Of a stretch of 64,000 bases of DNA, positions 408 to 61,907 are shown piece after piece (position 1 is the stretch's first letter; each line of letters begins with the position of its first letter). The stretch is from Hormiphora californensis (taxonomy: Eukaryota; Animalia; Ctenophora), in the NCBI GenBank assembly GCA_020137815.1, contig CM035357.1:5146001-5210000 (forward strand), given 5' to 3'. Below the pieces are notes generated by a model. It was given only the letters and a program-made list of their open reading frames with translations, did not search any database and was not told where the DNA came from. Made by a program: the position numbers and the translations under genes.

Positions 408-6627
<6,220 letters not shown>

Positions 6628-16231: not shown

Positions 16232-19200
16232 TCACAGTAACAACCCATTTTTCTTCTTATTTTTCCCCAGTTTCTTCTTCTTGCTGTTCTGTGCAGGAGC
16301 CCACGTGAAATCAGCGGTGAGGGAACTGTCGGAACAGTGTTCTGAACCTATAAACAGTAGAATATGTTATTGTCAGAAATCAAGAAAATCGTTATCATTA
16401 TTTTAAAATATAATGCCCAACCCTAATAACACAAATCTTAATGAACTGGAAACTTAAAAACCTAAAAATAAATCACGTACCAGTTTCCTCGTTGTTCTGT
16501 AGATGATGAAGGAGAAGAAGGGAGCGAGCTGTAGCTCTCTGTTCATCTGTATGTTGGGGACAACGCAGTGACCTACAGGAAACAAACAGTGAATCCAAGC
16601 ATTTGGTAGTTGTACATATTTGACTCGTGATGCTTCTGGTCCCAAAATGTATTTCCTTGGGGACCTGAATTCGATCCAGATTTCTACCGCTGATTGATTT
16701 ACCTTGTGCAGAGTTTTTTAGTGTACCCTGAAACCACTCCGCACATGTTTGTTAGGAATCGTTCCTTGCTGCTCGGGCTCAGTGCTTCAAAACTCTCCCG
16801 ATCACTCCCATCTGTCCCGTCCGGCGGAGAGCAGTCCAACTTGCTGGTACCCGTTTTGAATAACTTTCGTACTGTTTTGGGAGACCTGCATTGGGGAAAG
16901 GATTCTATTCAGGAAATTGAGAAACAAAGATAATTCCGTTCAAAATTGACTGAAAAATGATTCATTCACTGTTCCGAAGATGTATCTCAAATAGAACAAA
17001 CGCTAGAGCTGCTAGAAAAATGTGTAGATTTCCCGTACTACATCTATTTGTGGGGCAAGAGGAAATGATGCGATATCGCGATAAAAATTAACTTTTTAGT
17101 CTTTGCCGATATATTATTCTGATTCAAAATTGTCCTATCACTCTCTCCAAGCTGTATCTCGAACGGGGCCGGCGCTAGAGCTCACAGGAAAATGTCAAGA
17201 GTTTTAGTTGTCAACCTGTATTCTCGTGAGATAAAGAGATGTAGCACACAAGGCTTCGTTCCCAACTCTAATTGACAGTCACGGAGAATTATTCACGTCC
17301 CTCACGTTATAATGTTTTTGTTTTTCCAAACCATCTGTGCAACACAAACTTGACAAGACTAAGTTAGCACTTTGCCATGCTACGCAGTTTGTCGTTCGCG
17401 TAAGCTCACACCGGGCTGAAGAGCCGACACACTGGGAACATGTCAATTAGCACTATGCTTATCTAATTTTCACTACCTCCAGTCATCCTTCCATTGTTCT
17501 TACTCTACTACTTAATAACAGCCCACAAGAAGGACCCATAACTTCAACATGATGTTGTTTCTAGTTCTCTGTGCTCTAACAGCACAAACAGCCGCGGTAG
17601 ACCTCGCATTGGATGCCCTTAGCAGCCCCCAAAAGCTCCTGTCCCTATACCGGGATTATGCCACAAAGTACCACCGAACACCTACCCCTGAGCGGGTCCT
17701 GATCTTCCGGGAAAACCTGAAGAAGATCGTGGAAGGAAACAAACTGGCTACAACGTGGACACTCGGAGTGAACAAGTTTGCTGACATGACCCGGGAGGAG
17801 CGACAGAGTTATCTTGGACTCAACATGACACGGCGAGGATCTCCCAGTAGTGTTGCAGGGATCAGATTAGAGGAGCCTGTCAGCTTGGTGGGCGTTCCTG
17901 CGGAGAAAGACTGGAGGAAGGAAGGAAAGGTAACTGGAGTTAAAGATCAGGCCGCTTGTGGATCCTGTTATACCTTCGGAGCCGTCGGAGTCCTGGAGAT
18001 AAACTATGCCATCAGGACTGGAAAAAGGAAGGACTTTGCGGAGAAGGAGTATTTGGATTGTGTCTACCAGAGAGATGGTTGTGATGGAGGTTGGTCTGAG
18101 CACTGCTGGGACTACTCCGCAAGAGAGGGTCGACTAGCGCTGACAAGGGACCAGAAGTACAGCCCCTTCGATGGGAGGTGCGGAAGCAAGTACAAGAGAA
18201 TGCACAATGGCCTTATTGCATCCAAAATCACTGGTTATACCGAGATATACGGGCGAGGAAAGGAGAGCGCTTTCATTAAAGCCCTATCCCAGGGCTCTGT
18301 TGTTGTTGCCTTTCAGGTGACCGACTACTTTGGCTTCTACCAGAAGGGGGTTATAGCTGACAAAACATGTAACGACATGGGTGACAGCACTGCCAACCAC
18401 GCCGTCACCGGTGTCGGCTACACCCGGACCTCCATGATAATCAAAAACAGCTGGGGATCCGACTGGGGTATGTCTGGGTACTTTGAAACAGCGAGAGGAA
18501 CGGATGACTGTGAGTATTTCAGGTGGGGTTCATGGCCTAACTGGCAGGATACCGGGGTTGTTGACAATGACCCTGATTACCAACCTACTGATGATGATGA
18601 TTGTGTGGATGTCAACCCTGATGGATGTCCCTGTGGCACTGTGAGGTGTGGCGATGGAAACTGCAGGCATGTCCACATGTGCTAAACCCGCCGCAAAGTT
18701 ATTCGCAAGTTTTTTTTTCTTTCTTGAGTGATTCTTGTCTCTGTCTGACTTTGAGTAACAAAACTAAGATATCAGTTACCACAGTTAACCGTTACCACCA
18801 ATACACTCACCACTCATATCTATCCTCCACTTTTTTTCCTTACCAATAGTCAATACCCTACCCACTATTATAAATACTAACTGACTAAATTGATTATGGG
18901 CATAACACATAAAACTGCGTATATGTGGTGTTAGACAAGTCTGTGTAAAATATCAGAATTACCCATTTCGTCGGATGCGGGCCCGTTTTGATTTTCCAGT
19001 CTCCTCGTCATCCTCAAAGGGGTCATCCTCAGCCAGGGAGGCGTGATTAACATTAGCTATCCTCCGTCTAGCTACCCTGCTACTGTTTCTCCCCATTCCT
19101 AACATGGGATCAGGGAGGTTAGTGGAGGGTGGGTTGCTATGGTGACATTTATCAGCATTTTCACCATGATGACCCCCCCCCCCCTCGGATACCGATTATG

Positions 19201-23512: not shown

Positions 23513-23797
23513 GACTGTTCAGTATTAACGCTATATTATGATGTTTTTTAGATAAATGAGAAATGTGTCTGAAAATAAAACCATCTCTGTTTATGTGACT
23601 GGCAGCTATTTAAATCATTATCATTTGTTCCCTTACAAGTTACACACGTACATTCTTTTTCTTTTATTAAGGACACATTTGAAATATGGATTCATTGGAA
23701 TGTTTTTCTTGGTCAGCTTAAACAGCGTCCTCTTGATTAAAGCAAGCTAAAGCGCTTGATTTCAGGGGAAAAACTATAGGACACACGTCATCGTAAT

Positions 23798-26167
23798 GAT
23801 ACATTTGCAGTTTCATATTTGTTTCATTTTGAATGCTCTGTTACACTGACATACACCCGTCTAAGTCTCTCTTTAATCCTAAATCTATCAATTTACAACC
23901 GCATCGCCTAGTCTGGTTCAGTCATTCTGTCAAATAGTGCTCCTTTCCTGTATCTTTCAACACAGTACCTCTAATATCTGATCTCTAACGCACTCAATAC
24001 CTGCTCGTTTTCTTGTACTCAGGTCACGTCCATAATATTGCTCTGTCTCAAAACATACTCCTTGTGCCAATGCTCCTCTATATCCCTAATGATTCCCAAA
24101 ATTTCAAGTTTCTATCTTCAAAACTGTGGTCTCAGTAGCATTAAAACTGTCAAATACATCATTCTGCATTCTGGATACAGAATAACTTTGCGGATGTGTG
24201 ATATAAACGAATTGCCGGGATTCTCCAGACTCTCTCACAATCAGTTCATACATTTGCAGTTTCATATTTGTTTCATTTTGAATGCTCTGTTACACTGACA
24301 TACACCCGTCTAAGTCTCTCTTTAATCCTAAATCTATCAATTTACAACCGCATCGCCTAGTCTGGTTCAGTCATTCTGTCAAATAGTGCTCCTTTCCTGT
24401 ATCTTTCAACACAGTACCTCTAATATCTGATCTCTAACGCACTCAATACCTGCTCGTTTTCTTGTACTCAGGTCACGTCCATAATATTGCTCTGTCTCAA
24501 AACATACTCTTTGTGCCAATGCTCCTCTATATCCCCTAATGATTCCCAAAATTTCAAGTTTCTATCTTCAAAACTGTGGTCTCAGTAGCATTAAAACTGT
24601 CAAATACATCATTCTGCATTCTGGATACAGAATAACTTTGCGGATGTGTGACATAAACGAATTGCCGGGATTCTCCAGACTCTCTCACAATCAGTTCATA
24701 CATTTGCAGTTTCATATTTGTTTCATTTTGAATGCTCTGTTACACTGACATACACCCGTCTAAGTCTCTCTTTAATCCTAAATCTATCAATTTACAACCG
24801 CATCGCCTAGTCTGGTTCAGTCATTCTGTCAAATAGTGCTCCTTTCCTGTATCTTTCAACACAGTACCTCTAATATCTGATCTCTAACGCACTCAATACC
24901 TGCTCGTTTTCTTGTACTCAGGTCACGTCCATAATATTGCTCTGTCTCAAAACATACTCCTTGTGCCAATGCTCCTCTATATCCCCTAATGATTCCCAAA
25001 ATTTCAAGTTTCTATCTTCAAAACTGTGGTCTCAGTAGCATTAAAACTGTCAAATACATCATTCTGCATTCTGGATACAGAATAACTTTGCGGATGTGTG
25101 ACATAAACGAATTGCCGGGATTCTCCAGACTCTCTCACAATCAGTTCATACATTTGCAGTTTCATATTTGTTTCATTTTGAATGCTCTGTTACACTGACA
25201 TACACCCGTCTAAGTCTCTCTTTAATCCTAAATCTATCAATTTACAACCGCATCGCCTAGTCTGGTTCAGTCATTCTGTCAAATAGTGCTCCTTTCCTGT
25301 ATCTTTCAACACAGTACCTCTAATATCTGATCTCTAACGCACTCAATACCTGCTCGTTTTCTTGTACTAGCCACCACCCACCCCTCCACCCCACCCACCT
25401 CCCCCACCCTGGCCCTTGCCAATTTAGAGGACTTTGTGAAACACGCCAGTACAGGGACAATCCTTGTGTTTTGGTGCACTAAGTCGCTTATCGCGTGTAA
25501 CAACTCACAATTGTTCTTATCTGTCCCACCCGTCTTGTCCTATAGAACATCGTACACATTCTAGGGACGCTACAATCTGTCCCACCTCTTATTTGTATTT
25601 GATCATTTTTGTTCATCTTGATCTCTACTGGAAGTGGAAATGGTACACCTCTCATCTGATCACCAACAACATCACGGTACCAATCATACATCAAAAAGCT
25701 GTAAGTTCATTTGTCTGTATTGTCTGTTCATCTATTGTGTACCATTGATAATGATTCCGGAGTAAACCTTACCAATCAATAATTTAATTAGAGCTACTAT
25801 AGACAGACTACCCCAGACCCAAGCTTGAGAAGTGTCCACTCGACGGACCGTCGTCGTAACAAACAAACGAACAGGCCTACCTGCACAGCCACCCAAGCTT
25901 GAAAATGTGCCCCCTAACTTGTCTTTTTGCTTATTCGCAAGATAACTGCAATGTCCTCACGGGGCGGAGATGCGAAGAGTGCAACCGACCTTTAACCGTG
26001 GGGGCTGCGTAAGTGTCTTGCAAGTACAATGACTGACTGACAATATGAAAGCAATGATTTCAACTGACCACAACACGATGACAGACGCTATGACGAGGTT
26101 GCAATGTCGTTCTGCCCTAACGGGCAGAGTTTGGCACGCTATAACCTATCTGTACCACCACCACCAC
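23798..26167 (+). mobile_element. Non-coding retro-insertion A: 5' tandem array, conserved core, (CCA)n tail
   Basis: 14-bp TSD CACGTCATCGTAAT (23784-23797, 26168-26181); empty site at ~56562 in the duplicate. Confidence 0.82.
23800..25367. repeat. Tandem array, ~450-bp unit x3.5
   Basis: CATTTGCAGTTTCATATTTG recurs at 23802, 24251, 24701, 25151; units nearly identical. Confidence 0.95.
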
Positions 26168-26795
26168 CACGTCATCGTAATCATCACTGCGCTGGCAAGC
26201 GCAAAAGTCACCATCCCCCTCCTGGCTCCTTCAGCCGTTTATACCATTGAAAACTCATTAACAATCGAAAAATCGGCAGCAAATGGCATTTTTACGCCTT
26301 TATAGGTTGATACTCCATTCTTAAACCCACACATCAGACAAAACAAGCATCCACGATTAGGCACAAAAAGTTTTTCACTTTTTTTTGGCATACGTTGCAG
26401 GCCCCTTATAATATAATATAAGGGGCCTGGAGGGAATACCGCGCTGGGGGGGAATACATAAACAATCATATCTCCGGTTCCAGATAAGGTACAGAAATCG
26501 TTTTGGTAGCGTTGGAAAGAGGAAGATAACAGCTTTAAAATGCAACCGGTTTCAGGTCTCTATCTTATCAGGAACAGGAGATATGAACCAAACTCCGCAA
26601 AATCGAGTGCGGTAAAATGAAAAAATTCGAGATTTTAATTCAAATTTGAAACAAAGTGTCCCTGCAGGGATCTGTGACGTCACTTTTTGAAAACAACCCA
26701 TCTTTGAACGGTTATTGCTCAGCCTCCTGAAGTCCAATTTACTTCTCTCAAAAACAGCAAGGTAGATAATTGTCAGATCTAACAGCTAGTGAAAG

Positions 26796-26829: not shown

Positions 26830-26874
26830 GCGCGCGCCCGTGCGTTTTCGAATATCCCTCTGTAGGCTCTAGCC

Positions 26875-28278
26875 ATGCCAGATATGACAAATATGGCTAC
26901 ACCTACTGATGACAAAAGTGATGGCAATACCCTTGCCGTTGGAAATCTTGTAAACGCAGCAGATCCTCTCACCAAAAAGGTCCTGTCTGCCTACCGCCAT
27001 GATGTGGATTACACCAAGAATCTGGACATCATCCGCACATTCAATTGTGCCCACCTGGAAGCCGCTGCATCATTTTTCGGTGCATCCCCCGGCTCACATG
27101 CAGACAAAACTAAGCGGTACCAGAACCGCACTACACTAGCTGACTACATCATCATTCAGCTGGAAAGTCATTTTCCCTGTGATTGTGAGGGCTGCGGAGA
27201 AGGATATGCAGTTAAACTAGGTGAATCTCCTCGTGTCCGCTGTTTTCTTTGTCAGCAGGGGTCTCATGATTGCGAGGCTATGGATGGCACCCTTGGGTCC
27301 TTGACGGGGTCGGTCTGGTTATGTCTGCCGTGCAAGGACAAAAACAACAAAATTGAAACCTTCATGTGCAACCGAAGTGCTGAAGATCCAGAATCAGTGC
27401 TATCTGATGAGGAATACGAGTTCAAAATCAGTCCGAAGGCAGGCCGTAGTGGTAAGAAGAAGAGGAAGAAGAAACAAGCTCCTGTCAAGAAAGATCCTGA
27501 TGATCTGGTAACTCCTGTTGGTGGAGTGACAGTTCTAAAAGATGTGGATCTTGGAGACGTATCTTCTGATGGAGAGGTGCAACAGCAAGGTGTTCCCAAA
27601 TTCAGCAATGTTTGTGAACGTTATCTACTGAGAGACTGTCCTCATGGCCCAAATGGTGACAAGTTGATTAGTGGTAAGCCTTGCAGCAAGGAACATCCCC
27701 AGAAATGCCTCCGTTATTGTCAGTACGGAACGGCAACTCGTTCTGGGTGTAACTTTGGTGATAAGTGTCAGAATTTTCACCCACCTCTCTGCCATAATTC
27801 TGAGATCTCCCGAGTCTGTACCGACAAAGAATGTAAAGACACACATTTAAAGAACACTCGGAGAAGTGAAGTAGCCCCTGCTAAGGGTAATTCATTGAAG
27901 AGTACTGGTAACAAAACCAGTGATCTCTCTCAGAAAGTGGAGCAGAAAGAGCCCCGTCGTTCAGCTCCTCCAAACCCAAAGAAGAAGAAGAAGAAGATTA
28001 ACAAAACTGAGACCGATCCCCGTGCCGCGACCAATGACATCCGTTCACAAGAGGATTTTCTCATGGCATTGATGGCCTCAGTGAGGGACGAGATTCTTCG
28101 AGAAGTAAAGACGTCACTGAACTCATCTCTACAGTCCTTCAGGGAAGAGATGACGAGGGAACACACACCCCGGCCCAAACATCTGACACTCACACAACCA
28201 GGCCTGAACACCCCGACCAACTACCAAGGGGTTCTGGAACGGTTTCGGAATTACTCCTCATCAACGCCCGCAGTTTAA
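26875..28278 (+). CDS. LINE ORF1 with PHD-like finger and CCCH-type zinc fingers
   Basis: CEGC..CFLCQQGSHDC..WLCLPC (PHD-like); C-x7-C-xn-C-x3-H repeats; basic tracts. Confidence 0.85.
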   Translation: MPDMTNMATPTDDKSDGNTLAVGNLVNAADPLTKKVLSAYRHDVDYTKNLDIIRTFNCAHLEAAASFFGASPGSHADKTKRYQNRTTLADYIIIQLESHFPCDCEGCGEGYAVKLGESPRVRCFLCQQGSHDCEAMDGTLGSLTGSVWLCLPCKDKNNKIETFMCNRSAEDPESVLSDEEYEFKISPKAGRSGKKKRKKKQAPVKKDPDDLVTPVGGVTVLKDVDLGDVSSDGEVQQQGVPKFSNVCERYLLRDCPHGPNGDKLISGKPCSKEHPQKCLRYCQYGTATRSGCNFGDKCQNFHPPLCHNSEISRVCTDKECKDTHLKNTRRSEVAPAKGNSLKSTGNKTSDLSQKVEQKEPRRSAPPNPKKKKKKINKTETDPRAATNDIRSQEDFLMALMASVRDEILREVKTSLNSSLQSFREEMTREHTPRPKHLTLTQPGLNTPTNYQGVLERFRNYSSSTPAV

Positions 28279-31187
28279 CGCCTTCCGCGGCTAGTGACTG
28301 TCGGTGGAAGTTTTCTTTTATCAAGGACTCATTGGAGAATCCGTCAATACCCATCCTTTGCACCGGTATTACGGAGACCTGGTGGCATGATGATTTCTCT
28401 GATGCCCAATTGGAGATTGAAGGCTTTCACCTAACTCGTTGTGACAGAGCGGGTAGAAGAGGTGGCGGTTGTGCACTCTACATTAACAATCAACTGACCC
28501 CTTCCTCTGAGTTCAGATTCTCAGACACGTCCAATAGTGCGGCTGCTGTATACATCAAGGAGACCCACTCGGTTTTCTGTGTTGTGTACAGGGCGCCATC
28601 TTCCCCTGCGAATGACCTTTTTGATGATCTATCCCGTTTCATTGATCAGTGCGAACTCGACAAGGGTTGTCCTGACATCTATGTTATGGGCGACTTCAAT
28701 ATGCCAGACATAGACTGGGGAACACTCACTGGAGGACCTAACCCTTGCTCACAGATGCTACTAAAATTTGTGAACTCATATTTTCTCACTCAGCTTGTTG
28801 ACTCCCCAACACGGGGCTTGAATATTCTAGACCTCGTTCTCACCAACCGGCCAGACTATGTCTTCAAAACTGAGGTATCGGAGTCGTGTATTTCTGACCA
28901 TAATATGATCAGCTCTACACTTGGGTTTGGTATCTTACCCACTCGTCAATCAGACCATCGATTCACGGACTTTGATATTTACAACTTTCATGAGGCTAAC
29001 TTCCCTGAAATGTGTAGGGAGTTAGACCAGATCGACTGGCTAGCACTCGCCGACATCTGCGATGACGGTGATGGTTCTGATTTCGTTCAACTTTTCACCC
29101 TGACTGTTCTACAGGTCTTATCTCACCACTCTCGTAAGAAGAAGGCCCGTAAAAAAAGAAGGGACCCTGTTCTCAGGAAATTGAAAGTGAAACAGCGGAG
29201 TTTGAATAAACGGATTGCTCTTGCACGGCAGAATAAACCTCACCTTTTGCCACAGCTCGAGATTGGTGTTTCCAGAATTACTTGGGAAATTTTGTGCCAC
29301 ATTTCTCAGCGACTTGACAGTGATGAAAACGAGGCGCTGACAAAACTCAAAGCTAACCCAAAATTCTTCTGGTCATACGCCAACCGAAAGAGGAAGACCC
29401 GGTCACGTATACCTCCTTTACAGACAAGTGATGGTTCACTCACTGACGTTCCCGCTATGAAGGCAGAACTGTTTCAATCTCAATTCACATCTGTTTTCAG
29501 CACTCCTTCAAACTCTTCCTCAACAGCTGCAGACAACATCATTCCTTCTACATGCAGCCTTTCAGACATCGTTTTCTCCACCGCTGATATTGAAAAGGCA
29601 CTACATGACCTCAATCCCTATTCAGCCGGCCCTCCAGGAGATGTACCTGCCAGAATTTTACGTGACTGCCGATCATCGCTGTCCTACCCCCTATCCATCT
29701 TATGGGACAAATCGTTTGATTCTGGTATTGTACCACCCTGTCTGAAACTTCAGTACATTGCACCCCTCTACAAAAAGGGTCCTAAAATGAAAGCTGAAAA
29801 TTACCGCCCGATCTCCCTCACCAGTCACATTGCCAAGACATTTGAACGGGTTGTAAGATCTCAAATGGTGTCATACTTTGAATCAGAGAACTTGTTTAAC
29901 GAGTCTCAGCATGGGTTTAGAAGCAAGAGGAGCTGCTTATCCCAACTCACTCGTCACATTGACAATATTCTGAACAATCTCAACGACCTTCTTGAAGTGG
30001 ATGTAATCTACTTGGACTTCGAGAAGGCGTTTGATAAAGTTGACATCGGTATACTTCTCGAAAAGCTGCAGAGATATGGAGTTAAGGGCAAACTCCTTGA
30101 ATGGATCCGCAGCTTCCTACTAAACCGGAAACAAACGGTCTTAGTCGACGGCGTAGCGTCTTCTTTTGCAGAAGTCAGAAGTGGGGTCCCACAAGGGACT
30201 GTTCTCGGTCCACTTTTATTTCTGATCTATGTAATTGACCTGGAATCCGTAATCAAACACGGTTCTTCTTTGTCGTTCGCTGATGACACTAAAATCTTCT
30301 CTGCTATCCGTACTATGGTTGACAAATTGAACCTACAGGAGGATCTGAACAGTGTGATAACCTGGGCTGACGCTAACAATATGTCCTTGCACCAGTCAAA
30401 GTTCGAGGTCATGAATTTCACCCTGAATCACACCAGTTCGCTTAGAGAAGTACCGTTCAGTGCTGAGAACTATTCCTATCAACTCTCTGATGGGAGGTTC
30501 ATCGATCCAACAGACACTGTCCGAGACTTAGGTGTTCTACTCTCGAGTGATGGTCAATGGTCGGCCCAAATATCTCGAGTTGTTACCACGGCTAGTCGGG
30601 TTGCTGGATGGACATTAAGTGCATTTAGATCCAGAACTCGCCGCACCATGATGACTCTTTACAAGTCACTGGTGCGTCCCCATCTTGACTACTGTTGCAC
30701 ACTGTGGTCACCTTCCAAAAATGGGGATATTAGTCGTGTTGAGGATATTCAACGATCGTACACCCGTAAGATCGTTGGTCTCAAGGGGCTGAACTACTGG
30801 CAACGTCTTCAAACCCTGGGACTTTTGTCGCTTCAGCGCCGACGTGAGAGGTACACTATGATTCTTGTGTGGAAAGTGTACAACAATGAGATACCCAATA
30901 GTACTGACATGTGTTTCGTCGACAGGCACCGCTCTGGCCCTAGTGCTGTCGTCCCTCGATACTCGTACGAGGCTCAACGATCTAACCTGTCGCTATATGA
31001 ACAATCATTTGCGGTACTGGGGGCAAGGTTGTGGAACACTTTGCCTCGATCTGTAAAGGAGGCCCCAACTCTTTATCAGTTCAAATCTCAGCTAGGTAGT
31101 TTCCTCTCTACCATTCCGGATACACCCCCCATCAGCGGTTATCCTGCTCAAGCAAACAGTAACTCAATACTAGAGTGGTGTCCATGA
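28038..31187 (+). CDS. LINE ORF2, AP endonuclease plus reverse transcriptase (CR1/L2-group-like), intact; frame open from 28038
   Basis: INARSL, ITETW, GDFN, LDLVL, SDH (APE); NYRPISL, QHGF, DFEKAFD, GVPQGTVLGP, FADD, DLGV (RT). Confidence 0.93.
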   Translation, partial: HPFTRGFSHGIDGLSEGRDSSRSKDVTELISTVLQGRDDEGTHTPAQTSDTHTTRPEHPDQLPRGSGTVSELLLINARSLTPSAASDCRWKFSFIKDSLENPSIPILCTGITETWWHDDFSDAQLEIEGFHLTRCDRAGRRGGGCALYINNQLTPSSEFRFSDTSNSAAAVYIKETHSVFCVVYRAPSSPANDLFDDLSRFIDQCELDKGCPDIYVMGDFNMPDIDWGTLTGGPNPCSQMLLKFVNSYFLTQLVDSPTRGLNILDLVLTNRPDYVFKTEVSESCISDHNMISSTLGFGILPTRQSDHRFTDFDIYNFHEANFPEMCRELDQIDWLALADICDDGDGSDFVQLFTLTVLQVLSHHSRKKKARKKRRDPVLRKLKVKQRSLNKRIALARQNKPHLLPQLEIGVSRITWEILCHISQRLDSDENEALTKLKANPKFFWSYANRKRKTRSRIPPLQTSDGSLTDVPAMKAELFQSQFTSVFSTPSNSSSTAADNIIPSTCSLSDIVFSTADIEKALHDLNPYSAGPPGDVPARILRDCRSSLSYPLSILWDKSFDSGIVPPCLKLQYIAPLYKKGPKMKAENYRPISLTSHIAKTFERVVRSQMVSYFESENLFNESQHGFRSKRSCLSQLTRHIDNILNNLNDLLEVDVIYLDFEKAFDKVDIGILLEKLQRYGVKGKLLEWIRSFLLNRKQTVLVDGVASSFAEVRSGVPQGTVLGPLLFLIYVIDLESVIKHGSSLSFADDTKIFSAIRTMVDKLNLQEDLNSVITWADANNMSLHQSKFEVMNFTLNHTSSLREVPFSAENYSYQLSDGRFIDPTDTVRDLGVLLSSDGQWSAQISRVVTTASRVAGWTLSAFRSRTRRTMMTLYKSLVRPHLDYCCTLWSPSKNGDISRVEDIQRSYTRKIVGLKGLNYWQRLQTLGLLSLQRRRERYTMILVWKVYNNEIPNSTDMCFVDRHRSGPSAVVPRYSYEAQRSNLSLYEQSFAVLGARLWNTLPRSVKEAPTLYQFKSQLGSFLSTIPDTPPISGYPAQANSNSILEWCP

Positions 31188-44277: not shown

Positions 44278-45637
44278 TCTCCTCACATTCCTCCCTTGTA
44301 TATTTCTATCTTCTAATCTTTCTATCGTTTTCTATCGTTTTTAATTAAAATCCCGCACAAAACAACATTTGCTAGCTAGAGAGAGAAGAGGGGGGTGTTA
44401 GTGTAATTGGGTAATGGTACAAGGGACCGGGGGTACTACTCAGTGCGACACGCAGTGTACACAAGCAACTGTGTAGAGAGAGGGAGATAGAGAGAGGGGG
44501 AGCCGGGAGAGACGGTTATGTAATAAAGTCGACCGTTAAAAAACACCACACTGGAAAGTGTGGGGAAATTAAACAAAAATTAATATATGGTAGGTTCAAC
44601 ACGTACAAAACAGGAAACATATCGTCCAACCCATACCCGAAAAAATACAAGCAAGAGTAGGGATCTGTGTTTGATTTCTGAAGCATAGATGGAGAGAATG
44701 AGAGAGAAAGAATGTGTGAGAGTCTAACCTAGTCTACTACCGGAGAGGACATATGATGGGGTACAAGAAGCAAATACAATGCTAGGAAACGCTTAGCACT
44801 TGCATTGTCTTGGTTTGCAGTACACAAAGTGTGTGTCTCTCTCACACTTTCTCTTTCACTTTCTCTTTCTCTCTCTCTCTCTCTCTTTCAGTCTCTTTCT
44901 CTTTTTCTCTCTCTCCCTTTCAAACTTCACAGCATTAGACGTTAGGTGGCAGCCCGCAGCTCACATAAATCTATCAATAGAGGTATAAACTACAATAGCA
45001 GTGGAGAGACAAGTAGAAAATGCAAATTAGTTGTCGATAAATCGGCAAATAATAGATCTAGTAGAAGAAAGCTGAGAAGGCCGAAGGGAGATGCCCGCTC
45101 TCACAGTAACAACCCATTTTTCTTCTTATTTTTCCCCAGTTCTTCTTCGGTGTCTGTGCAGCGAGCCCACGTGAAGTCAGCGGTGAGGGAGCTGTCGGAA
45201 CAGTGCTCTGAACCTATAAACAGTAGAGTATGTTATTGTCATGATATAATCGATATTTAAAATACAATGTTAACTCTAAAATAAAAAACTAGCAGTAGTA
45301 ATTTAACTATTTGGCGCCACCAGACCCATTTTTACAGTGCGCTCAGTTTTGAAAGTGCGCTCAGGTTTGAAAGTGTGCACAGAACGGGTCGGCGCCGCCA
45401 GACAGACATTTAGCAACCTAGAAGTTAAATAATCACGTACCAGTACCTAGAATTAGAAACCAAACACATTTTCGAAATCACATACCAGTTTCCTCGTTAT
45501 TCTGTAGATGGTGAAGGAGAAGAAGAGATCGAGCTGTAGCTCTCTGTTCATCTGTATGTTGGGGACAACGCAGTGACCTGCAAAGTGCAAGAAACAAACA
45601 GTGAATCCAAGCATTTGGTAGTTGTACATACATATTT

Positions 45638-48469
45638 TGGCACTCTGATCGTTTCTCGTTTCCTGTGCTTCTAGTTCAGTACAAACACCACATTTTGTCA
45701 CCGTTTCTTCCTTTAACATTCAAAAAATCACCCCACAGCCCTCCTCTACTCCCCAGTGGTCTCTACACAGCTTAGATAATGCCCAATGTGGTCCTGATAA
45801 GCTTAGAAATGGCTCATTTTCACTGAAAAAGATTCCCGAAAATTTCGAAACAAAGTCATTTTTGAAGTTTGCGATGCATTTATTTCCATTTTATTAAAAG
45901 TCCACTTTAAGTTGCTTGCGGAGGCCCGTACACATGGTTACCACTTCGTGACATACTTCCCGGAAGTCTCATTGCACTCTGATCGTTTCTCGTTTCATGT
46001 TGCTCTCGTTTCCTCAGTAACAAACACCACATTTTGTCACATGTTCTTCCTTTAACATTCAAAAATCACCCACAGCCCTCCTCCTACTCCCCAGTGGTCT
46101 CTACACAGCTTAGATAATGCCCAATGTGTCCCTGATAAGCTTAGAAATGGCTCATTTCACTGAAAAGAGTTCCCGAAAATTTCGAAAAAAAAAAAGCATT
46201 TTTTGAAGTTGCGATGCATTTTATTTCATTTTATTAAAAAGTCCACTTTTAAAGTTGCTTGCGGAGGCCCGTACACATGGTTACCACTTCGTGACATACT
46301 TCCCGGAAGTCTCATTGCACTCTGATCGTTTCTCGTTTCTGTTGCTCTCGTTTTCTCTCAGTACAAACACCACATTTTGTCACCTGTTTCTTCCTTTAAC
46401 ATTCAAAAATCACCCACAGCCCTCCTCTACTCCCAGTGGTCTCTACACAGCTTGATAATGCCCAATGTGTCCCTGATAAGCTTAGAAATGGCTCATTTTC
46501 ACTGAAAAAGATTCCCGAGAAATTTCGAAAAAAGTCATTTTTGAAGTTTGCGATGCTTTTATTCCATTTTTTTATTTAAAAGTCCATTTTAAAGTTGCTT
46601 GCGGAGGCCCGTACACATGGTTACCACTTCGTGACATACTTCCCGGAAGTCTCATTGCACTCTGATCGTTTTTCGTTTCCTGTTGCTCTCGTTTCTCTCA
46701 GTACAAACACCACATTTTGTCACCTGTTCTTCCTTTAACATTCAAAAATCACCACAGCCCTCCTTACTCCCAGTGGTCTCTACACAGTTAGATAATGCCC
46801 AATGTGTCCCTGATAAGCTTAGAAATGGTCATTTCACTGAAAAAGATTCCCGAAAATTTCGAAAAAAGTCATTTTTGAAGTTTGCGATGCATTTTTATTT
46901 CCATTTATTTAAAAGTCCACTTTAAAGTTGCTGCGGAGGCCCCCGTACACATGGTTACCACTTCGTGACATACTTCCCGGAAGGTTCTCATTGCACTCTG
47001 ATCGTTTCTCGTTTCCTGGTGCTCTCGTTCTCTCAGTACAAACACCACATTTTGTCACTGTTCTTCCTTTAACATTCAAAAACTCACCCACAGCCCTCCT
47101 CCTACTCCCCAGTGGTCTCTACACAGCTTAGATAATGCCCAATGTGCCCTGATAAGCTTAGAAATGGCTCATTTCACTGAAAAAGATTCCGAAAAATTTC
47201 GAAAAAGTCATTTTTTGAAGTTTGCGATGCATTTTATTTCCATTTTATTTAAAGTCCACTTTTAAAGTTGCTTGCGGAGGCCCGTACACATGGTTACCCT
47301 TCGTGACATACTTCCCGGAAGTCTCATTGCACTCTGATCGTTTCTCGTTTCCTGTTGCTCTCGTTCTCTCAGTACAAACACCACATTTTGTCACCTGTTT
47401 CTTCCTTTAACATTCAAAAATCACCCACAGCCCTCCTCCATCCCCAGTGGTCTCTACACAGCTTAGATAATGCCCAATGGTGTCCCTGATAAGCTTAGAA
47501 ATGGCCCATTTTCTACTGAAAAGGTAACCGAAAAATCCCACCCGCCCCCCCCCAGCCACCCCCTAAAATAGAGGCGTTTACTAAACAGCCCACTACAGCG
47601 ACAATCCTGTGTTTTGGTGCACTAAGGTCGCTTATCGCTGTAACAATTATCAATGATCCTATCTATGTTATCCGATTGTCTCTAGAACATATCACACTCT
47701 ACATTGTACTGTCCTATGCCTTATTTGTGTTTGATGTCTTTTAATCTTAATCTCTACTGAAAATGGACACACTTCACATCTCATCACCAATTACGTCACG
47801 GTACCCATCAATCCATCAAGGTCGTAAGTTTGTCAGTCCGTTGTTATGTACAGTTGTATCCAAATTATGATCGTAGCCATTGAGAGATTTCTATTCTTAT
47901 TCAGTTAGATCTTTAGCTAGCGCTGTTGACAGACCGTACTCACAATGGAAAACGTTACCTTGATCCAGACCAAGTCCAAGACTTGCTACCTTGTTCCAAA
48001 ATCATTCAAGACTACCACAAAGGCAAAACGTTACCTTGTTCCAGACAACAAAACTCAAGACACTCAAGGCAAATCGTTACCTCTGTTCCAGGACTAAACT
48101 AAACTCAAGACACTCTAAGGCAAAACGTTACCCGTGTCCAGACCTAAAACTAAAATCAAGACATCTCAAGGCAACAACAATGTACCAGCTCCAGCTAATA
48201 TAAACCTTAGGAATTTGATTTAGGCCAGGAGTAGTGTGATACCCCTGTCGACGTCGTGGCGGCTCACGCCGCTCGGGCGTCGACAGTGGTTGACCACGGT
48301 CTTCCTGGAGGTCTGAAGTAAACATGCTTCGCATAAAACTGATTGGTGGGTGGCCTTGCACGGCGGAGGGGTGGACGTGCTGGGGCGCCTAATAAGCGTG
48401 CTCGGTGCGGCCGCCGCTACTTTCGGGCAGGTCACTCGCCAGACGCAGCAAGTACAAACAAACAAACAA
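45638..48469 (+). mobile_element. Non-coding retro-insertion B: ~340-bp tandem array x5.6, conserved core, short repeats, GC-rich 3' region, (CAAA)n tail
   Basis: 12-bp TSD ACATACATATTT (45626-45637, 48470-48481); absent at ~16615; unit starts at 45640, 45974, 46317, 46657, 46993, 47329. Confidence 0.82.
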
Positions 48470-49476
48470 ACATACATATTTGTCGCAGGGTGCGCAAAAC
48501 ACAGTCTAGCTAGGCAACATATTTGACTCGTGATGCTTCTGGTCCCAAAATCTCCTTTGGGACCTGAATTCGATCCAGATTTTTACCGCTGTATTGATTT
48601 ACCTTGTGCAGAGTTTTTTAGTGTACCCTGAAACCACTCCACACATGTTGGTTAGGAATCGTTCCTTGCTGCTCCGACCTCAGTGTTCAAAACTTCCCGA
48701 TCACTTCCATCAGTCCCGTCCGGCGGGGAGCAGTCCAACTTGCTGGTACCCGTTTTGAATAACCTTTCGTACTGTTGTTGGGAGACCTGCATACGGGGGG
48801 GGAAAGGAGTCTTATTCAGGAAAATTGAGAAAACAAAGTTAATTCCGTTCAAAATTGACTGAAAAATGATCTATCACTGTTCCGAAGTGATCTCAAATAG
48901 AAAAAACGCTAGAGCTGCTAGAAAAATGTGTTGATTTCCACGCTATGTAACATCTATTTGTGGGGCAAAGAGGAAATGTGCGATTTCGACGATGAAATTA
49001 ACTTTATGTCTTGCCGTTCATATATCTGATTCAATCAATTGCTCCTTATCATCTCTCCAGCTGTTAATGTCCGAAACGGGTGGGGGACGCGCGCTAGAGC
49101 TCACAGGAAAATGTCAAGGTTTTAGTTGATCACCATTTTTCTCGTGTGAGATAAAAGATGAGTGTAACACACAGGCTCGTTCCCAACTTTAATGTACAGT
49201 CACGGAGAATTATTCACGTTCCCTCACGTTTATAATGTTTTTGTTGTTCCAAACCATTATGTGCAACACAAACTGACAGGAATCTAAGTTAGCACTTTGC
49301 CATGTTACGCCAGTTTGTCGTTCGCTGATAGCTTCACACATCGGGCGGAAGAGTCCGACACATGGGAATCATTGTCAATTGCACTATTGCTTTTAAAGAT
49401 CTAATTTCACTACATCCTCTATGTTTCTTATCTACTACTTAATAACAGCCACACAAGAGGGACCCATATTTCAACA

Positions 49477-50634
49477 TTGATTTTTGTTGTTTTATTCTCT
49501 GTCTCTCACAGCACAAACAGCCGCAGGGATCACTCGCATACGGGATGCCCTCAGCAGTCCCCCAAAAGCTCTTCGTCCCTTTACCGGAGTATTCATAAAG
49601 TACCATGCGACAACACCTACCCCAGAAAGTCTGATCTTCCGGGAAAAACCTGAAGGAAGATAGTGGGAGGGAAAACAAAGTGTAATACGTGGACCACTCG
49701 GATGCGTGAACATATTTGGACATGGACAGGGAGAGGCGCACAAAGTATCTTGGATCTTCAACATGACCACGGCGAGGATCTCACAGTGGTGCAGGAACAA
49801 GTGAGGAGCCTGTCAGCTTGGTGGGCGTTTCCTAGCGGGAAGAAGATGGGGAAGGAAGGCAAGTGGAACTGGAGTTAAATGATTCAGGACGCTTGTGAAT
49901 CCTGTTATACTTCCGGAGCCGTCGGAGGTCACTGGAGATTAAAGATGCCATCAGGGACTGGAAAAAGGAAGGACGTTTGCGGAGAAGAGATTGGATGTGT
50001 CTACAGAGGGATGGTTTGTGGAGGGTTGGTCTGAGCATGTGGACTACATCCGCAAAGAGAGGGTCGACTAGCGCCGAGAGGGACCAGAAAGTACAGGCCC
50101 ATTCGTTGGGCAGTGCGGAAGCAAGTACACGAGAATGCACCAATGGCCTATTGCATCCAAAATCAACTGGTATACCGGATATACGGGCTCAGAGCGAAAG
50201 GAAGGGCGATTTAACGCCCTATCCCAAGGCTCTGTGGTTGTTGCGTTTTCATGGTGACGTGACTGACTACTTGCGCTTCTACCAAAGGGGAGATAGCTGA
50301 CAAAACATTAACACATGGGGGACAGCACTGCCAAACCCGCGTACACGCTGTGTCGGCTATCACCCGGACCCCATGATAATCAAAAACAGCTGGGGATCCG
50401 ACATGGGGTATGTCTGGGATACTTTGAAAACGCGAGAGGAACGGATGGACTCGTGTGAGTATTTCAGGTGGGGGTCATGGCTAACTGGAAGAGCATACGG
50501 GGTTGTGAATAGGACCACTGATTACCCAAACCTACTGATGGATGGATTGGGTGTGGGATGAACACGATGGATGTCCCTGTGGCCACTGTGAGGGTGGCGT
50601 GGAAACTGCAGGCGATGTCCCACATGTGCCGTAA
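49477..50634 (+). other. Second copy of the nested C1A protease, heavily frameshifted (probably raw-read error)
   Basis: Colinear with 17549-18685; fragment [10 protein letters not shown]. Confidence 0.75.
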
Positions 50635-52933
50635 AATCCCGCCGCAAATATAGGAGTCTGACAAGGTTTGTCTGTGCTTGGAGGATGCTTGCCTGTGCTG
50701 ACTGAGGCGGAACAAACGTAAGGATGACCAGTTACCACAGGAAACTGGACCAACCAAGACCCACACGCAGAGCTAGCCTGGCCACAGTGGGGTCCGTACC
50801 AAGGGCAGACCGACCAACGAAGAGCAAAAGAAGAAAATGAAGCAACCTCCCACACATACCACCTCAATACCACTCACACAACTTCATACTTACCCCCACC
50901 CCCCCCCCACCCATCGCCCACCATACCAACGCCTTCCACACCCCCACCACACCCACTTGTCCCCCACACCTCACTAGTTCTTCTATCTCCTAATAATACT
51001 AGCTCCCCAACTTTTATCACCTTCTATCACCCAACCAATACCCCAACGCTGCCCCCACCCTCCCCCCTACCCTAACCCCTCCCCCCCCCCTCCCCAACCC
51101 TTCTCCCCCCATCCCCTATCACCTCACCACACCCCCACCCCCCACCGTCCACTCTCTCCCCCCCACCCCCTCCCATCCCCCCAACTCCCTCCCACACACC
51201 CCTCTCCCACTAAACCATACACCCCTCTCCCCCCCCTCGCTCCATACCCCCATACCAACAATTAACCCTCCCCATAACCCCACACTCACCCCACTAATTG
51301 ATATGGGCATAACACATTAAAATGCGATATGTGGGTGTTAGACAAGTCTGTATAAAATATCAGAATTACCATTCGTCGGATGCGGGCCCAGTTTTGATTT
51401 TCAGTCTCCCGTCATCCTCAAAGGGGGTCTCCTCAGCCAGGAGGCGTGATTAACATTAGCTATCCTCCGTCTAGCTACCCTGCTACGGTTCTCACCCACT
51501 TCCTAACATTGGGATCAGGGAGGTAGTGGAGGGGGGTTTGCTAGGTGACTTTTATTCAGCATTTTCACCATTGATGACCCCCCCCCCCTAGGATAACGAT
51601 TATGATATGTGATGTGACTGGTTGTAAAAAAATTGGGAAACTAAATATATTGGGAATTTGTTGGGATGTATATTAAACACCTTGACCCATGCATTTTCAA
51701 GATGAGGAGCAAATCTGTCGATGCTACAGAAATCTCGACCACATCGGACATCAAGTCTCATGACTTGACCTGAAAATCAAGAAGGTTTTAGTTCTAACAA
51801 ACTGCAACACCACAGTTCCCTTGCAGGGGAGGGGCGTATATAAATCTCTTACAGGAGATTGATTGAATAGGTTTTGACTGCTATAGGTAAAATATTGCTA
51901 CCTCTTTGGCTGGCCAAAGATTGTCCATTCCCTGCTAGTTTCACTAGCGGACTCTCATCTCTCCGGTCTTCCAACTCATTGGAAATACCCCAACACTTGC
52001 CCTGCAGATAAACAGAGAGTTAGCTGGCTCTAGGTTGGTCCAATTATAATAACCCTACTTAAAAAAAACAAAGGCTGATCAAAAGAAAAGAAAAAAAGAA
52101 GGCTGACTGGCTAGCTACAAATGTGGAGTGTCTGGTTGCCAGTGACCCATATTGTGTGTTGAAAACACACAGTGGTCGTTAAACTGCGTAGAAGACCGGT
52201 CGTCAGCTCATCAATCAAAACTATCGTAGTTTTAGAAGTATTATATCACTTATCCATGCAGAAGAGGAAGGATTTTGATTGACTGTAGATCTTAATATAA
52301 TTGGGGAAATGGTCAAAGCTTAAGCATAAAATCAATATCAACGATGGAGATAAAATTTCAATCACTGCAAAGTCGAGAGAGTAGCCACAAAAGAATAGGT
52401 ATCGGAGCTGCTCACAAACATTTTCGCAGCTACCAAAATTCATTTACGAGTGACCCAAACAAGTGAGGCGGGCAATAATGTGAGTGACCCCAGAGAATGC
52501 CAACACCAAACATTAGTCAATCGAGAACGTATTATTCAACATTGTATACTTAATATGTTTTAAAAAGCATAATTTGAATATACGGACACACTCATCATGC
52601 TAATGATTTGAGTAGTTAACTATTAATTAATGCATGGTAGGATTGACGGTAATACAATGTTATCAACTGTCAAACCAATACATGCCACAATCATTCCTTC
52701 AAAGCTATTCTCTAACTCAAAAGTCTAACAACTCGTCTCTTCTCACCACTTATACATGTCTTCAAGGAGTAGAACACGTTTGACATTTATCGCTTTATCT
52801 ATCGCTTCCAGTTCTAAACCTATCATCTAATATCTTATATATCTACCCCTTTCTCTCCCTTTCTTTCTCTCTCTCCAATATCTCAAATAGCACGGACGGT
52901 ATAATGGCTAAAGATAGAGTACCCGTGCAAGCA

Positions 52934-56319: not shown

Positions 56320-56750
56320 GACTGTTCAGTATTAACGCTATATTATGATGTTTTTTAGATAAATGAGAAATGTGTCTAAAAATAAAACCATCTCTGTTTA
56401 TATGACTGACAGCTATTTAAATCATTATCATTTGTTCCCTTACACACGTACATTCTTTTTCTTTTATTAAGGACACATTTGAACAATGGATTCATTGGAA
56501 TGAACAGCGTCCTCTCGATTAAAGCAAGCTACAGCGCTTGCGGGGTAAAAACTATAGGACACACGTCATCGTAATCATCACTGCGCTGGCAGGCGCAAAA
56601 GTCACCATCCCCCTGCTTGATGCTTCAGCCGTTCATACCATTGAAAACTCATTTACAATAGAAAAACCGGCAGCAAATGGCGTTTTCACGCCTTTAGAGG
56701 TTGATACTCCATTCTTAAACCCACAATCCACACATCAGATGCCAAAACAA

Positions 56751-57666: not shown

Positions 57667-60600
57667 TCACCAATCCATCTTATTCTCCTTATTCTCTTCT
57701 TTGACCGCTCCACTTTTACTGTGACACTCCTCAGCAAACTTCCTAAACAGGTCCACGCTGGATTTTAGGGAGGTTTTAGCGTAGTCAGGGACCTTATTGC
57801 CTGACTCCTCCCCTTCCTTCCAGTTCCCCATCTCTTCTACCAACTGTTCCAGAGTCTGAACACGGGGGGAGGAATGTGAATATTGGTGATAAAAAGGATT
57901 CATCTCCACAAAACAAGGGGGAAAGGTCGGTAGAACTTCGACATTTAGGGCAGTTCATTTTAGGGCATGTTGTCCAACTAGCATGAAGCGGGCACACGGA
58001 AATACTGCACTTACCGGGACAGTAAAGGGATCGAAAGTGTCCACGTCCTTAGCCAGGAACGGGATACAGACCCGCCCAGTTTTGGGATGAACCGAGAAGG
58101 GAGATTTAAGAAGATGATTGAGGCCCTTTGTCACATTGACATCCAACCGGGGATAACACAGCTGAAATAGAGGGATATTCGAGGCAAAGTTTGCCTTGCT
58201 CGACTCTCTTTCCGTAAAGGAGGGTTCGAACAAGGTTCGAACAAGGTTCGAACAAGGAAAGCTCGATCGTTGTATATGAGAATATCGTTGCTGTACAGTT
58301 CGTAAAACAAGGGAGTGAAACGAGAGACTCCTGTACAGAGCTTTTCTTGTTCGAATTTTAATATGAAGTTCATAGCTAAATACCTGCAGAACAACTTCTT
58401 TGATCGCATTGTTTTTCTGCTTCCTCGCTTTAGCATATTCAGCCCAAGCACTTTTTAACAGGCTCCATTTCTTCTTGCTATCACCTGGACTTGCAGCCCA
58501 GTCTGCCATGTCATTTTGAATGGTCTTGGCCGGGAACATGTTTAGCACCTGCAGAGTTGAGCGTTTAGAGTTGGAATAAAAGTAAATACTGAACCCGGCC
58601 GACCCGATCTGAGCGCAAAAAAGGGTCTGGCGGGGGGGGAGGGGGGATCTAGCGCCCCTTGACACTGATAACACTGGATACTATTAGAGCTTGATATACT
58701 CTACCAAGACCTGAAATTCACAGAAAACAATTTGACGATTATATGTACCTGATTCCTCTTCTCAGGTGTAGACAAGAAATCCTGGTTACGAATCATCAGC
58801 TCATCAAAATATCCTGCTGTAATCTCCACAGCTCTCTCAATAGCAGGGTGGAGGGCTCCAGGGAGGAGAACCTTCTTCGATTGGTTATCTCCCCCAACCA
58901 CTACAGACATGTAGTCAGCTATTGCTCCCCTTCCTGACAACAATTGGGAGAAGATATAGGGAACGATATAAAAGAACTAAAACAAGGAAGTGAGTGATGG
59001 GGCGTATCGGTAGAGAAAGAATTGTGTAGCTCATACTGAACGCTCTGTGAGGGTTCGGAACGAAGAATACCAAAAATTGGCATTTGGCCAAGTATCCAAC
59101 TTGTCTGCTTACCCGAGTTGTTTAGCTTCCTGGCCGTTTCATCAGCAATCCAACAGTGAATACCCCTCCTTCCCGAGTAGACCCAAAGGATTTGGGAAAA
59201 CCCGAAATCTGTCCTCAGCGCCTCATCTAGGACTTTAACTGCAATCTTCATAAAGACCCAACAGCTTGGACAAATATTGGCCTCCTGGCAACACGACCTG
59301 CAGTGGGTTATTATTATTATTAGGGACCAACTTGCAAAAAGCATCAGGGTATATAGCAGTATGTGTAATGTGATTGTAGGAATGAAGCTAAACAGGAATT
59401 AGGAAACATTGGGGCTGATGAAAGAGAGGTCTTTGTTACACCAGGAACCGACCGAATCAGGAAATACTGGTCCCTGATTGGCTGATAACCAGTGACGATA
59501 ACAGGTTCTGAGGGGGGGGTGACACGTAACACTTTGTAACACTTTGTAACATGTGCAGAAAACTTTTTGTGCACGTTACATGTTACAAAGTGTTACATAG
59601 TGTTACATAGTGTTACATAGTGTTACAAAGTGTTACATAGTGTTACAAAGTGTTACATAGTGTTACAAAGTGTTACATAGTGTTACATAGTGTTACATAG
59701 TGTTACAAAGTGTTACATAGTGTTACATAGTGTTACAAAGTGTTACATAGTGTTACAAAGTGTCACAAAGTGTTACATAGTGTCACAAAGTGTTACAAAT
59801 TGTTACAAAGTGTTACAAATTGTTACAAAATATTTACAAACACACAAGGATTTGTAGCGAAGCAAATTTTCAATCTTTGACCAAAAAATTGATTTTGGAA
59901 AAATTTCATTTCTTTTTCCAACAGAAACGTTGTATATCATCTTATTAAGTACAAAGAATCGATTACCAATGAAAAAAAGTCGATTGGGTCACAACTCACA
60001 GGTGACTCAGCACATTGGGGGCCTCTGAGAGGCACAATACTTTTAATATCACTCTAAAAACTTTACCGTTGTCTAAAGTTCATATTTTTCTTTACCAAAT
60101 GGACTATTTCAGCCCTGATTTCCACAGTCGATGACATCGGAGGCTCAAAATATCCGCAAATTAGTAAAAAAGTGTATGTTTTAATAGTAGAGTCGATAAC
60201 TACATCGACCTCTCCCAATTGTTCCAGTTTTTGTCACATCTGTTTGGAGCCTCGACACGACCTCTAAACAGGTGTTACTTTTTCACAAACTGTTTTCATC
60301 TTGGTGTAATCAGCAGTTGAAATGTTGCTAATCATAACAAAAACCTGACTAAATTTTTTCAACTTGGGGTAAAACCATGGGTGTCAAAAGTTAGCTCTAG
60401 GTCCCCTGAGTAACCATCCGGAGACTCTAAGAGATATTTCAAGCCGTTCTCCCGTAATCATTAATCCCGGTGGAGAAAAAAAATACAATGCGGACGTACG
60501 TGAGCGCTGGCAGGCTGTTTACATGTTATTGTATGTCTCTCACTCTCTCTGGAAAAACCGCACGTGCGGTTGCGCCGCGCGAGATAACTCTTTCTCAAGG

Positions 60601-61907
60601 GGGAGAAAAGAGAGAGACGCACATTAACGTTATACATTAAAGTTGAGGTTGTAGGCAATTGCACGTACGTCCATACTCAAATATGTGCTCTACCGGGATA
60701 AATGATTACAGGAGAACGGCTTGAAATATGTCTTGGAGTCTCCGGATGGTTACTCAGGGGACCTAGAGCTAACTTTTGACACCCATGGTTTTACCCCAAG
60801 TTGAAAAAATTTAGTCAGGTTTTTGTTATGATTAGCAACATTTCAACTGCTGATTACACCAAGATGAAAACAGTTTGTGAAAAAGTAACACCTGTTTAGA
60901 GGTCGTGTCGAGGCTCCAAACAGATGTGACAAAAACTGGAACAATTGGGAGAGGTCGATGTAGTTATCGACTCTACTATAACCCTAGAAATGATTTATAA
61001 CTTTTAGATGTGTTCTAGAAAGACACCAAAGTCGTTCAAATTACTTATTCACCAACCGTCTTATATATTTTGTAAATATTTTGTAACAATTTGTAACACT
61101 TTGTAACAATTTGTAACACTTTGTGACACTATGTAACACTTTGTGACACTTTGTAACACTATGTAACACTTTGTAACACTATGTAACACTTTGTAACACT
61201 TTGTAACACTATGTAACACTTTGTAACACTATGTAACACTTTGTAACACTATGTAACACTATGTAACACTATGTAACACTATGTAACACTTTGTAACACT
61301 TTGTAACACTATGTAACACTTTGTAACACTATGTAACACTTTGTAACATGTGCAGAAAACTTTTTGTGCGCGTTACATGTTACAAAGTGTTACAAAGTGT
61401 TACGTGTCACCCCCCCCCTTCTGATTGGCTGTTTACTTGTTTTGGTTCCTTTGTTACACCCACCTCACATCATCGTAATCTGTCATGTCAATATCAAACA
61501 CAACCTCCCTCTCCATCGCGGTGAATGCCCCACTTTTAAATGCCTTGTGGTCCTTCGGTTTGGCATTGTACACCGCCCCAACGTCAATCTTGAAGGGGTT
61601 CACTGCACGAAGCTCCTTCTTGAATTCGTCCTGGTTCGAAAAGGACTTGTACCTGGGGGAGGGGGTTAGTTTAGGAGGTGATAACCGAATCTTGGTTGAT
61701 CTCCAGGAAAGCTATGCAGGGGAGAGAAGGACAATGAGGGGGGGGGGTGTCGTACCGTAGGTATATATCCCCATTTAGGGTGAAAGAGAACTCCCGTTTA
61801 GCAAGGTAGTCTGGTGAGCCATAGGATAACCATTTGATATAGGGGCTATACGGGAACAACTTGGAGTAGTAGATCTTCAGGTGTTCCTCTATATCGGCAA
61901 CCGGCAT
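57667..61907 (-). CDS. PRIM1: DNA primase small subunit, second copy/allele
   Basis: Near-identical protein, with synonymous changes and different intronic TEs. Confidence 0.9.
59442..61451 (-). mobile_element. hAT MITE (3706 family) split by a nested foldback element
   Basis: MITE halves 59442-59511 and 61419-61451; TSD TGTTACAC; empty site ~36540. Confidence 0.82.
59512..61418. mobile_element. Foldback element with G-run termini and 10-bp tandem arms (TGTTACAWAG)
   Basis: GGGGGGGGTGACACGTAACAC inverted ends; arrays ~59575-59830 and ~61080-61350; inner inverted repeat ~60186-60460 vs ~60700-60978; apparent TSD TTCTGA. Confidence 0.87.

Follow-up and report, generated by a model that had tools for sequence, protein, structure and literature searches.

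Two array-headed retroposon-type insertions with a common non-coding core in the ctenophore Hormiphora californensis

Introduction

In the available parts of the published accounts, the 5′-UTR of rodent L1 consists of an array of monomers joined to ORF1 by a tether of ~250 bp, and in mouse it was exchanged on at least 11 occasions (PMC5381506; PMC9022269). The LP-SINEs of molluscs are described, in the accessible portion of the source, as joining a conserved SINE domain to a LINE-derived head for which Pol II transcription is proposed (PMC4758252). Bipartite LINEs without ORFs are probably transcribed by Pol II and have been put forward as the source of SINE middle bodies, and exchange of tails is also described in the available text on these elements (PMC5786205).

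What conserved SINE cores do and where they come from, and how non-autonomous elements persist without a Pol III promoter, are long-open questions. Here, we compare these systems with two elements, A and B, in which a core is kept without a small-RNA head, beside arrays that resemble stacked promoters. Both lie in a single window, by which we mean the whole stretch of 64,000 nucleotides that was analyzed (contig CM035357.1 of assembly GCA_020137815.1, positions 5,146,001 to 5,210,000). Coordinates are those of the window, and features are on the plus strand unless stated otherwise.

Results

A tandem duplication takes up most of the window (~7800–38075 against ~39434–62866, 82–93% identity) and supplies an empty site for each of the two elements. 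Element A (23798–26167) is flanked by 14-bp target-site duplications (TSDs) at 23784–23797 and 26168–26181, and its empty site in the duplicated copy of the region is clean, with one copy of the 14-bp direct repeat at 56562–56575. Element B (45638–48469) has a TSD of 12 bp, or of 13 bp should one T be an error in a homopolymer, at 45626–45637; this is the longest match between the flanks and is identical to 48470–48481. The empty site of B lies near 16614, where 47 bp present beside B (48470–48516) are also missing. Read on the minus strand, this 47-bp piece looks like the truncated end of a (TATG)n-tailed retroposon, and it bears a motif resembling the TGTGTTTTG..GCAC of the core block described below. 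Because the piece is deep in contigs from sequencing runs and fragment-like in this way, B probably landed in its end.

With TSDs, empty sites, 3′ hairpins, and microsatellite tails, A and B are insertions of the retroposon type, real elements with good boundaries, although only two whole elements are at hand. They measure 2.4–2.8 kb and share one layout: a tandem array, a C-rich tract, a core, and a tail. Like SINEs, both are non-coding and have a TSD of variable length and a simple-repeat tail at the 3′-end. Helentron/DINE-1-like elements with internal tandem repeats have no long TSD and carry subterminal inverted repeats; the 12- to 14-bp TSDs of A and B set them apart from that class.

Other features of the window bear on its history and quality. 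The second copy of the duplication, which is in part full of one-base indels, could represent a second haplotype or a segmental duplicate that was left unpolished; the region copy around B is poorly polished, and its alignment to an intact cathepsin ORF shows 103 gaps over 1201 columns. An intronless papain-family protease with an I29 propeptide (17519–18685) has a frameshift-laden copy within 49300–50700. A very C/A-rich low-complexity stretch (50766–51296) is absent from the other copy and may be a sequencing artefact, and a fold-back element with long inverted arms of 10-bp repeats (59512–61417) is also present in one copy only. An intact-looking LINE (26866–31187), absent from the duplicated copy and without homology to A or B, encodes a 470-aa Cys/His-rich ORF1 without a Pfam match and a 1049-aa ORF2 with endonuclease and reverse transcriptase. 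At 3981–6109, a GIY-YIG fragment (4634–5416, minus strand) lies between 714-bp inverted repeats of 97% identity, the remnant of a Penelope-like element in inverted arrangement.

The array that heads B (45638–47534) comprises 5.6 copies of a G-poor, non-coding monomer of ~340 bp, the first of which begins at 45640; tandem-repeat detection places it at 45640–47522, with a period of 340 and 5.6 copies. The array of A (23799–25368) holds 3.5 copies of a 450-bp monomer (period 450), so that across the two elements array length is 1.6–1.9 kb. Monomers of A are 99% identical to one another; the corresponding value for B, 91%, is probably an underestimate because the region copy around B is indel-laden. 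A reading made earlier from the sequence alone had described B's monomer as ~340 bp long and different from that of A, and the comparison agrees: the likeness between the monomers (score 82 against 82 ± 12 in shuffles) is at shuffle level, and they are thus unrelated. The same sequence-only reading had pointed to a pyrimidine tract ending in CTCAG in both monomers. The tract is there in each, but dinucleotide shuffling of the monomers produced an equally good acceptor-like site 67 times in 100 for A and 64 times in 100 for B, and we rejected it as a meaningful acceptor.

No Pol III head was found, as had been claimed. Box A and box B motifs are absent from both strands of A and B, as are tRNAs, and the 31 Rfam rows returned for the window at E ≤ 5 all lie outside both elements. 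A Pol III head for A and B was accordingly rejected, and neither element has the tRNA, 7SL, 5S, or snRNA head with Pol III boxes by which SINEs are strictly defined. Runs of four or more T residues occur in the monomers and cores of both elements and are evidence against Pol III transcription.

In both elements, a C-rich tract connects the last partial monomer directly to the core, at 25371–25409 in A and at 47537–47563 in B, where it consists of four C-runs and is G4-like on the minus strand. The core follows at 25390–25707 in A and 47537–47830 in B and ends in both at GTAAGT (25701 and 47824). Its homology between the elements, proposed on sight along with a set of motifs that are all present, is strongly borne out: BLAST within the window aligns 25390–25694 of A with 47537–47819 of B at 72.4% identity over 308 columns (E = 1.7e-33), and the local alignment score of 302 compares with 53.7 ± 9.4 (maximum 86) in 100 shuffles. 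In each element, the core stands between array and tail, again as described. A central domain common to families that differ in heads and tails, the mark of conserved-core SINEs, is thus present here with n = 2. Conservation is highest in a block of ~50 bp (47594–47646 in B), which is 90–93% identical to A and includes the near-palindrome TTGGTGCACTAA at 47614; outside it, identity is 47–83%. No third copy of the block occurs in the 64-kb window at up to four edits, and a metagenome scan for a 19-base block of the core returned one locus, L001, without homology in its flanks, a chance match. One-base insertions had also been read into the block from the difference between A and B. The motifs themselves are present, but at least one of these one-base indels is an assembly error in B, since most contig depth has one more T behind 47607, just like A.

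A coding role for the core, which the sequence-only reading had marked for checking, is ruled out: mismatches are spread evenly over codon positions (16/87, 16/94, and 21/92), most gaps are not multiples of three and break the frame, and the 13 ORFs from cores, tails, and monomers returned only two Pfam rows, both far under the cut-off. A structured RNA was likewise rejected. The cores fold no better than their shuffles (z of +2.1 for B and +0.8 for A), and covariation, for which a search had also been proposed, was not observed, the consensus of the two cores having nine pairs, none compensatory, and a covariation term of 0, with the little power that two sequences afford. The block folds with a z of −2.9 in B but only −1.0 in A, and into a different structure. 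The ~50-bp block more likely acts at the level of DNA or binds protein than folds as a structured RNA.

The 3′ regions differ, as the earlier description of B stated. The tails of B (47836–48469) and A (25713–26167) score 34 against each other and 40.6 ± 7.1 in shuffles; at this shuffle level, they are unrelated. The tail of B contains a variable 51-bp repeat (48020–48174), a hairpin (48241–48290), a long 3′ hairpin (48345–48440), and a terminal (CAAA)n (48455–48469). That of A has internal tail-like remnants, (CAAA)n near 25858 and GCAAGTACAA followed by (TGAC)n at 26020–26042, and ends in a hairpin and (ACC)n. A hairpin followed by a microsatellite is the layout of LINE-type 3′-ends, and the hairpins ahead of the microsatellite tails have z values of −3.2 (B) and −2.0 (A) over 60 shuffles. 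The internal GCAAGTACAA and tetranucleotide run at 26020 in A matches the terminus of B, with a surrounding alignment that is not significant (24 against 21.6 ± 4.3); this resemblance suggests that tails may be built up in layers. The trinucleotide GTA stands directly ahead of all four tail or tail-like microsatellites in the two elements (~25855, 26024, 26151, and 48452), a possible mark of a single partner LINE clade. Neither tail matches the one intact LINE in the window, its 3′-end included, and A and B have neither AATAAA on the plus strand nor poly(A).

Part of B's stretch was present in eight of the ten sequencing runs listed, from four studies and with no RNA run listed among them; two of the eight (X7 and X8, marine metagenome) hold small shares of it, and another run, X9, from a different organism, yielded only five 31-letter C-rich pieces, which are chance matches. 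Contigs of four runs were placed on 47170–48570; for one of these, X10, presumably RNA, the number of records was 0, a result that does not bear on expression. Two of them, X1 and X5, carry the same organism label in two studies, and X1 is possibly the source sample. In each of the 28 bins inside B, summed contig depth reaches at least 1,377 (X1) and 1,227 (X5), compared with 206 and 147 for the outer bin of the flank. These sums are not copy numbers and are lowered unevenly by B's own errors; B is repetitive along the whole covered part. Depth rises to 11,124 (X1) and 15,911 (X5) in the bin at 47593–47639, within the conserved block, from 2,869 and 4,282 in the bin before it, and falls to 1,798 and 1,828 after it. 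That the block is deeper than the adjoining core hints that further families share it. The monomer region is also deeper than the core. Some contigs lack 48037–48195 of the tail, the region of the 51-bp repeat, and others lack 48242–48370 (129 nt). One X1 contig tracks the core to 47841 and continues in 84 unlike letters, and one X5 contig joins at 47848 after 43 unlike letters, which hints at further combinations of core and tail. Among the contig pieces listed, none bridges array and core or core and tail with 31 letters on each side, and no joint among those listed starts at GTAAGT.

At the 5′-end of A, an extra G (23798) stands between the TSD and the first monomer, where monomer and target both have C, and is a candidate for a cap-derived nucleotide. 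According to the available text of one study, full-length L1-type insertions typically carry such a cap-derived G (PMC11702581). B begins with a G too, but it can be read as part of a 13-bp TSD with a homopolymer error. Because B's G is ambiguous and the junction of A shows TCAT microhomology with one mismatch, the extra G amounts to one clean case of two. No spliced leader-like addition was found at either 5′-end.

When positions are counted from the phase of each element's observed 5′-end in the monomer, both monomers end in motifs that resemble a promoter. In B (45947–45973 in the first monomer), GTGACATA lies at −26, CGGAAGT at −13, and an initiator-like TCATT at −5, in every full monomer; each full monomer of A has CGGATGT at −57, GTGACATA at −50, and TCAGT, likewise initiator-like, at −7. 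The motif CGGA[AT]GT, which we take to be ETS-like, occurs exactly once per monomer on the plus strand, and the 60.5 kb beyond the arrays contain it ten times. It fell within the last 70 nt in 0 of 400 and 1 of 400 monomer shuffles, figures that overstate the significance of its position because the pattern was found by eye, composed after both monomers had been seen, and fitted to both. In both monomers, the G content of the 70 nt upstream of the 5′-ends is among the highest 9% of phases, with a weak enrichment of CpG (top 17–22%), and the two monomers share five 8-mers against 4.4 ± 2.3 expected, which is chance level. Since the pattern is post hoc and 8-mer sharing is at chance, we treat the motifs as a lead rather than proof. 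The repeat heads are nevertheless likely to work as stacked promoters, and A and B would then be SINE-like parasites with a promoter of mouse L1 design in place of a tRNA gene.

Discussion

The account that we favor, with modest confidence, is that A and B are LINE-mobilized non-autonomous retroposons made from Pol II transcripts that would start inside their own array, driven by a monomer promoter of the mouse L1 type. Each monomer would carry a predicted Pol II promoter at its 3′-end and fire transcription at the next monomer, and the RNA would then pass through the remaining monomers, the C-tract, the core, and the tail. A LINE enzyme acting in trans may recognize the 3′ hairpin and microsatellite, prime at the target, and insert a copy with a TSD. 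A full-length copy would begin at the start site of a monomer, and the extra G of A would come from the cap. Because each full-length jump would shed at least one outermost promoter unit, arrays would have to re-expand, as with the monomers of rodent L1. The core would descend from a common ancestor, with heads and tails exchanged around it, the heads as captured promoters that were then amplified in tandem and the tails as new or added 3′-ends; this turnover probably proceeded through template switching in which the C-tract formed the junction. Transcription, promoter activity, the partner, and the swapping are all inferred. Tandem promoter modules have a parallel in TRE5-A, the A module of which occurs in tandem copies. 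Promoter activity of that module is reported in the available part of the source (PMC5911963).

More tentatively, A and B could belong to a Pol II SINE superfamily without a single parent LINE, in which one core was repeatedly fitted with captured promoters that were amplified into consumable arrays and with new LINE tails, in convergence on rodent L1. If this were true, a monomer-array promoter like that of rodent L1 would have evolved again in non-autonomous elements, and the monomer number and 5′ phase of each copy would provide a countable ratchet and a direct test of SINE cores as LINE tethers.

The core may be a LINE tether, because an array followed by a ~250-bp tether, with arrays replaced, is the design of the rodent L1 5′-UTR. 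A and B would then have arisen independently by internal deletion, as bipartite non-autonomous LINEs, from two related LINE families in which array and tether form the 5′-UTR, and parts would not have been swapped within a SINE lineage. We consider this less likely than the account that we favor. In its support, the ~300-bp unique piece behind the array agrees with the layout published for rodent L1, bipartite Pol II elements have been described, and the core is non-coding with divergence even over codon positions. Against it, no ORF1 remnant follows the core, the intact endonuclease-reverse transcriptase LINE of the window has neither array nor core, and the layered look of A's tail fits tail exchange; moreover, ORF-less bipartite elements are reported only from RTE, Ingi, Vingi, and R2 in the available part of the relevant survey (Kojima 2018). 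The mode of transcription and mobilization would be the same as in the account that we favor, and the case would shrink to a new clade that produces bipartite derivatives, a modest result.

The arrays could also be passengers rather than promoters, acquired when the reverse transcriptase switched from a core-and-tail retroposon onto satellite or read-through transcripts, with 5′-ends that are random truncations. The ambiguity of B's G and the microhomology at A's junction would agree with this, as would the post hoc nature of the promoter motifs and the depth of the monomer region, which exceeds that of the core as expected if monomers exist apart from it. But two unrelated arrays meet the same C-tract, each 5′-end follows closely on the same rare set of motifs, and no alternative promoter, in the form of Pol III boxes, is at hand to account for the high copy number, and we regard passenger arrays as improbable. 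Least credible of the alternatives is that the arrays stem from circular monomer RNAs reverse-transcribed by a rolling-circle mechanism, the route of non-LTR retrozymes mobilized by Penelope-like elements: near-identical head-to-tail monomers of 340–450 bp within a TSD-flanked insertion, and a GIY-YIG fragment that places Penelope-like elements in this genome, would suit it, but no hammerhead core occurs on the plus strand of either monomer, core, or tail, the one loose match to the pattern, on the minus strand of A, is without the C of the core, the Rfam search returned no ribozyme, and A and B have a unique core and LINE-type hairpin and microsatellite ends.

Returning to A and B as LINE-mobilized retroposons with promoter arrays, each of their ingredients has precedent, both Pol II-type heads on core SINEs and 5′-UTRs of monomers and a tether. 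The analogy with core SINEs that lack a Pol III head, which the sequence-only reading had drawn without recognizing a described counterpart, holds insofar as A and B are non-coding insertions of the retroposon type that have no Pol III head and keep the core in one place. The LINE-derived tails and swappable modules of that reading stand as proposals, with no match to the one intact LINE of the window and with hints of further combinations from contigs; the design is not unprecedented, however, given the LP-SINEs in the accessible text of PMC4758252. In the titles and abstract openings of the open literature that we searched, we did not find the combination seen here, non-autonomous retroposons that are headed by an array and share a core, and the available text of PMC12859917 had nothing that bears on it; it is quite possible that a repeat library such as Repbase or Dfam holds an undescribed entry.

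The following comparisons refer to the available parts of the sources cited. Non-LTR retrozymes are also mobile tandem monomers of a few hundred bases (PMC7229834; 10.64898/2026.07.22.740005), but A and B have a unique core and tail and are without their hammerhead ribozyme. SVA and LAVA are likewise kilobase-size non-autonomous composites with internal tandem repeats, mobilized in trans (PMC3287187, PMC5174737); their VNTR is shared and central and their 3′ part varies, whereas the array of A and B is 5′-terminal and replaced, with no Alu-like part or poly(A). As in the CORE-, V-, Deu-, Nin-, and MESC-domain SINE superfamilies, a central domain is common to families that differ in heads and tails (PMC4758252, PMC5786205), but those domains are 45–150 bp long, follow small-RNA heads, and span taxa, whereas the core of A and B is ~300 bp long, headless in that sense, and found in one organism so far.

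Bipartite derivatives such as RIME, NARTc, Bov-A, WALLSI3, and those of Vingi resemble A and B in being ORF-less, probably transcribed by Pol II, and mobilized by LINEs (PMC5786205); arrays go unmentioned in the available text on them, and the LINE of our window matches neither part of A or B. With the LP-SINEs, A and B share TSDs, a conserved central domain (MESC or a partial Nin-DC in theirs), microsatellite tails, and a head that is not of the Pol III type, but the LP-SINE head is a single LINE-derived piece of ~70 bp (Nimb/RTE-type) common to the families, in place of the family-specific array of 1.6–1.9 kb (PMC4758252). The mouse and rat L1 elements, finally, have ORF1 and ORF2 behind the array and tether, which are absent from A and B; they end in poly(A) as opposed to a hairpin and microsatellite, and the monomers of A and B are G- and CpG-poor. 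What the rodent L1s and the ctenophore elements have in common is an array of tandem monomers, each hundreds of bases long, with a unique piece of ~250–300 bp behind it, and unrelated monomer types on related elements, with a Pol II promoter role that is shown for L1 and predicted for A and B (PMC5381506, PMC9022269).
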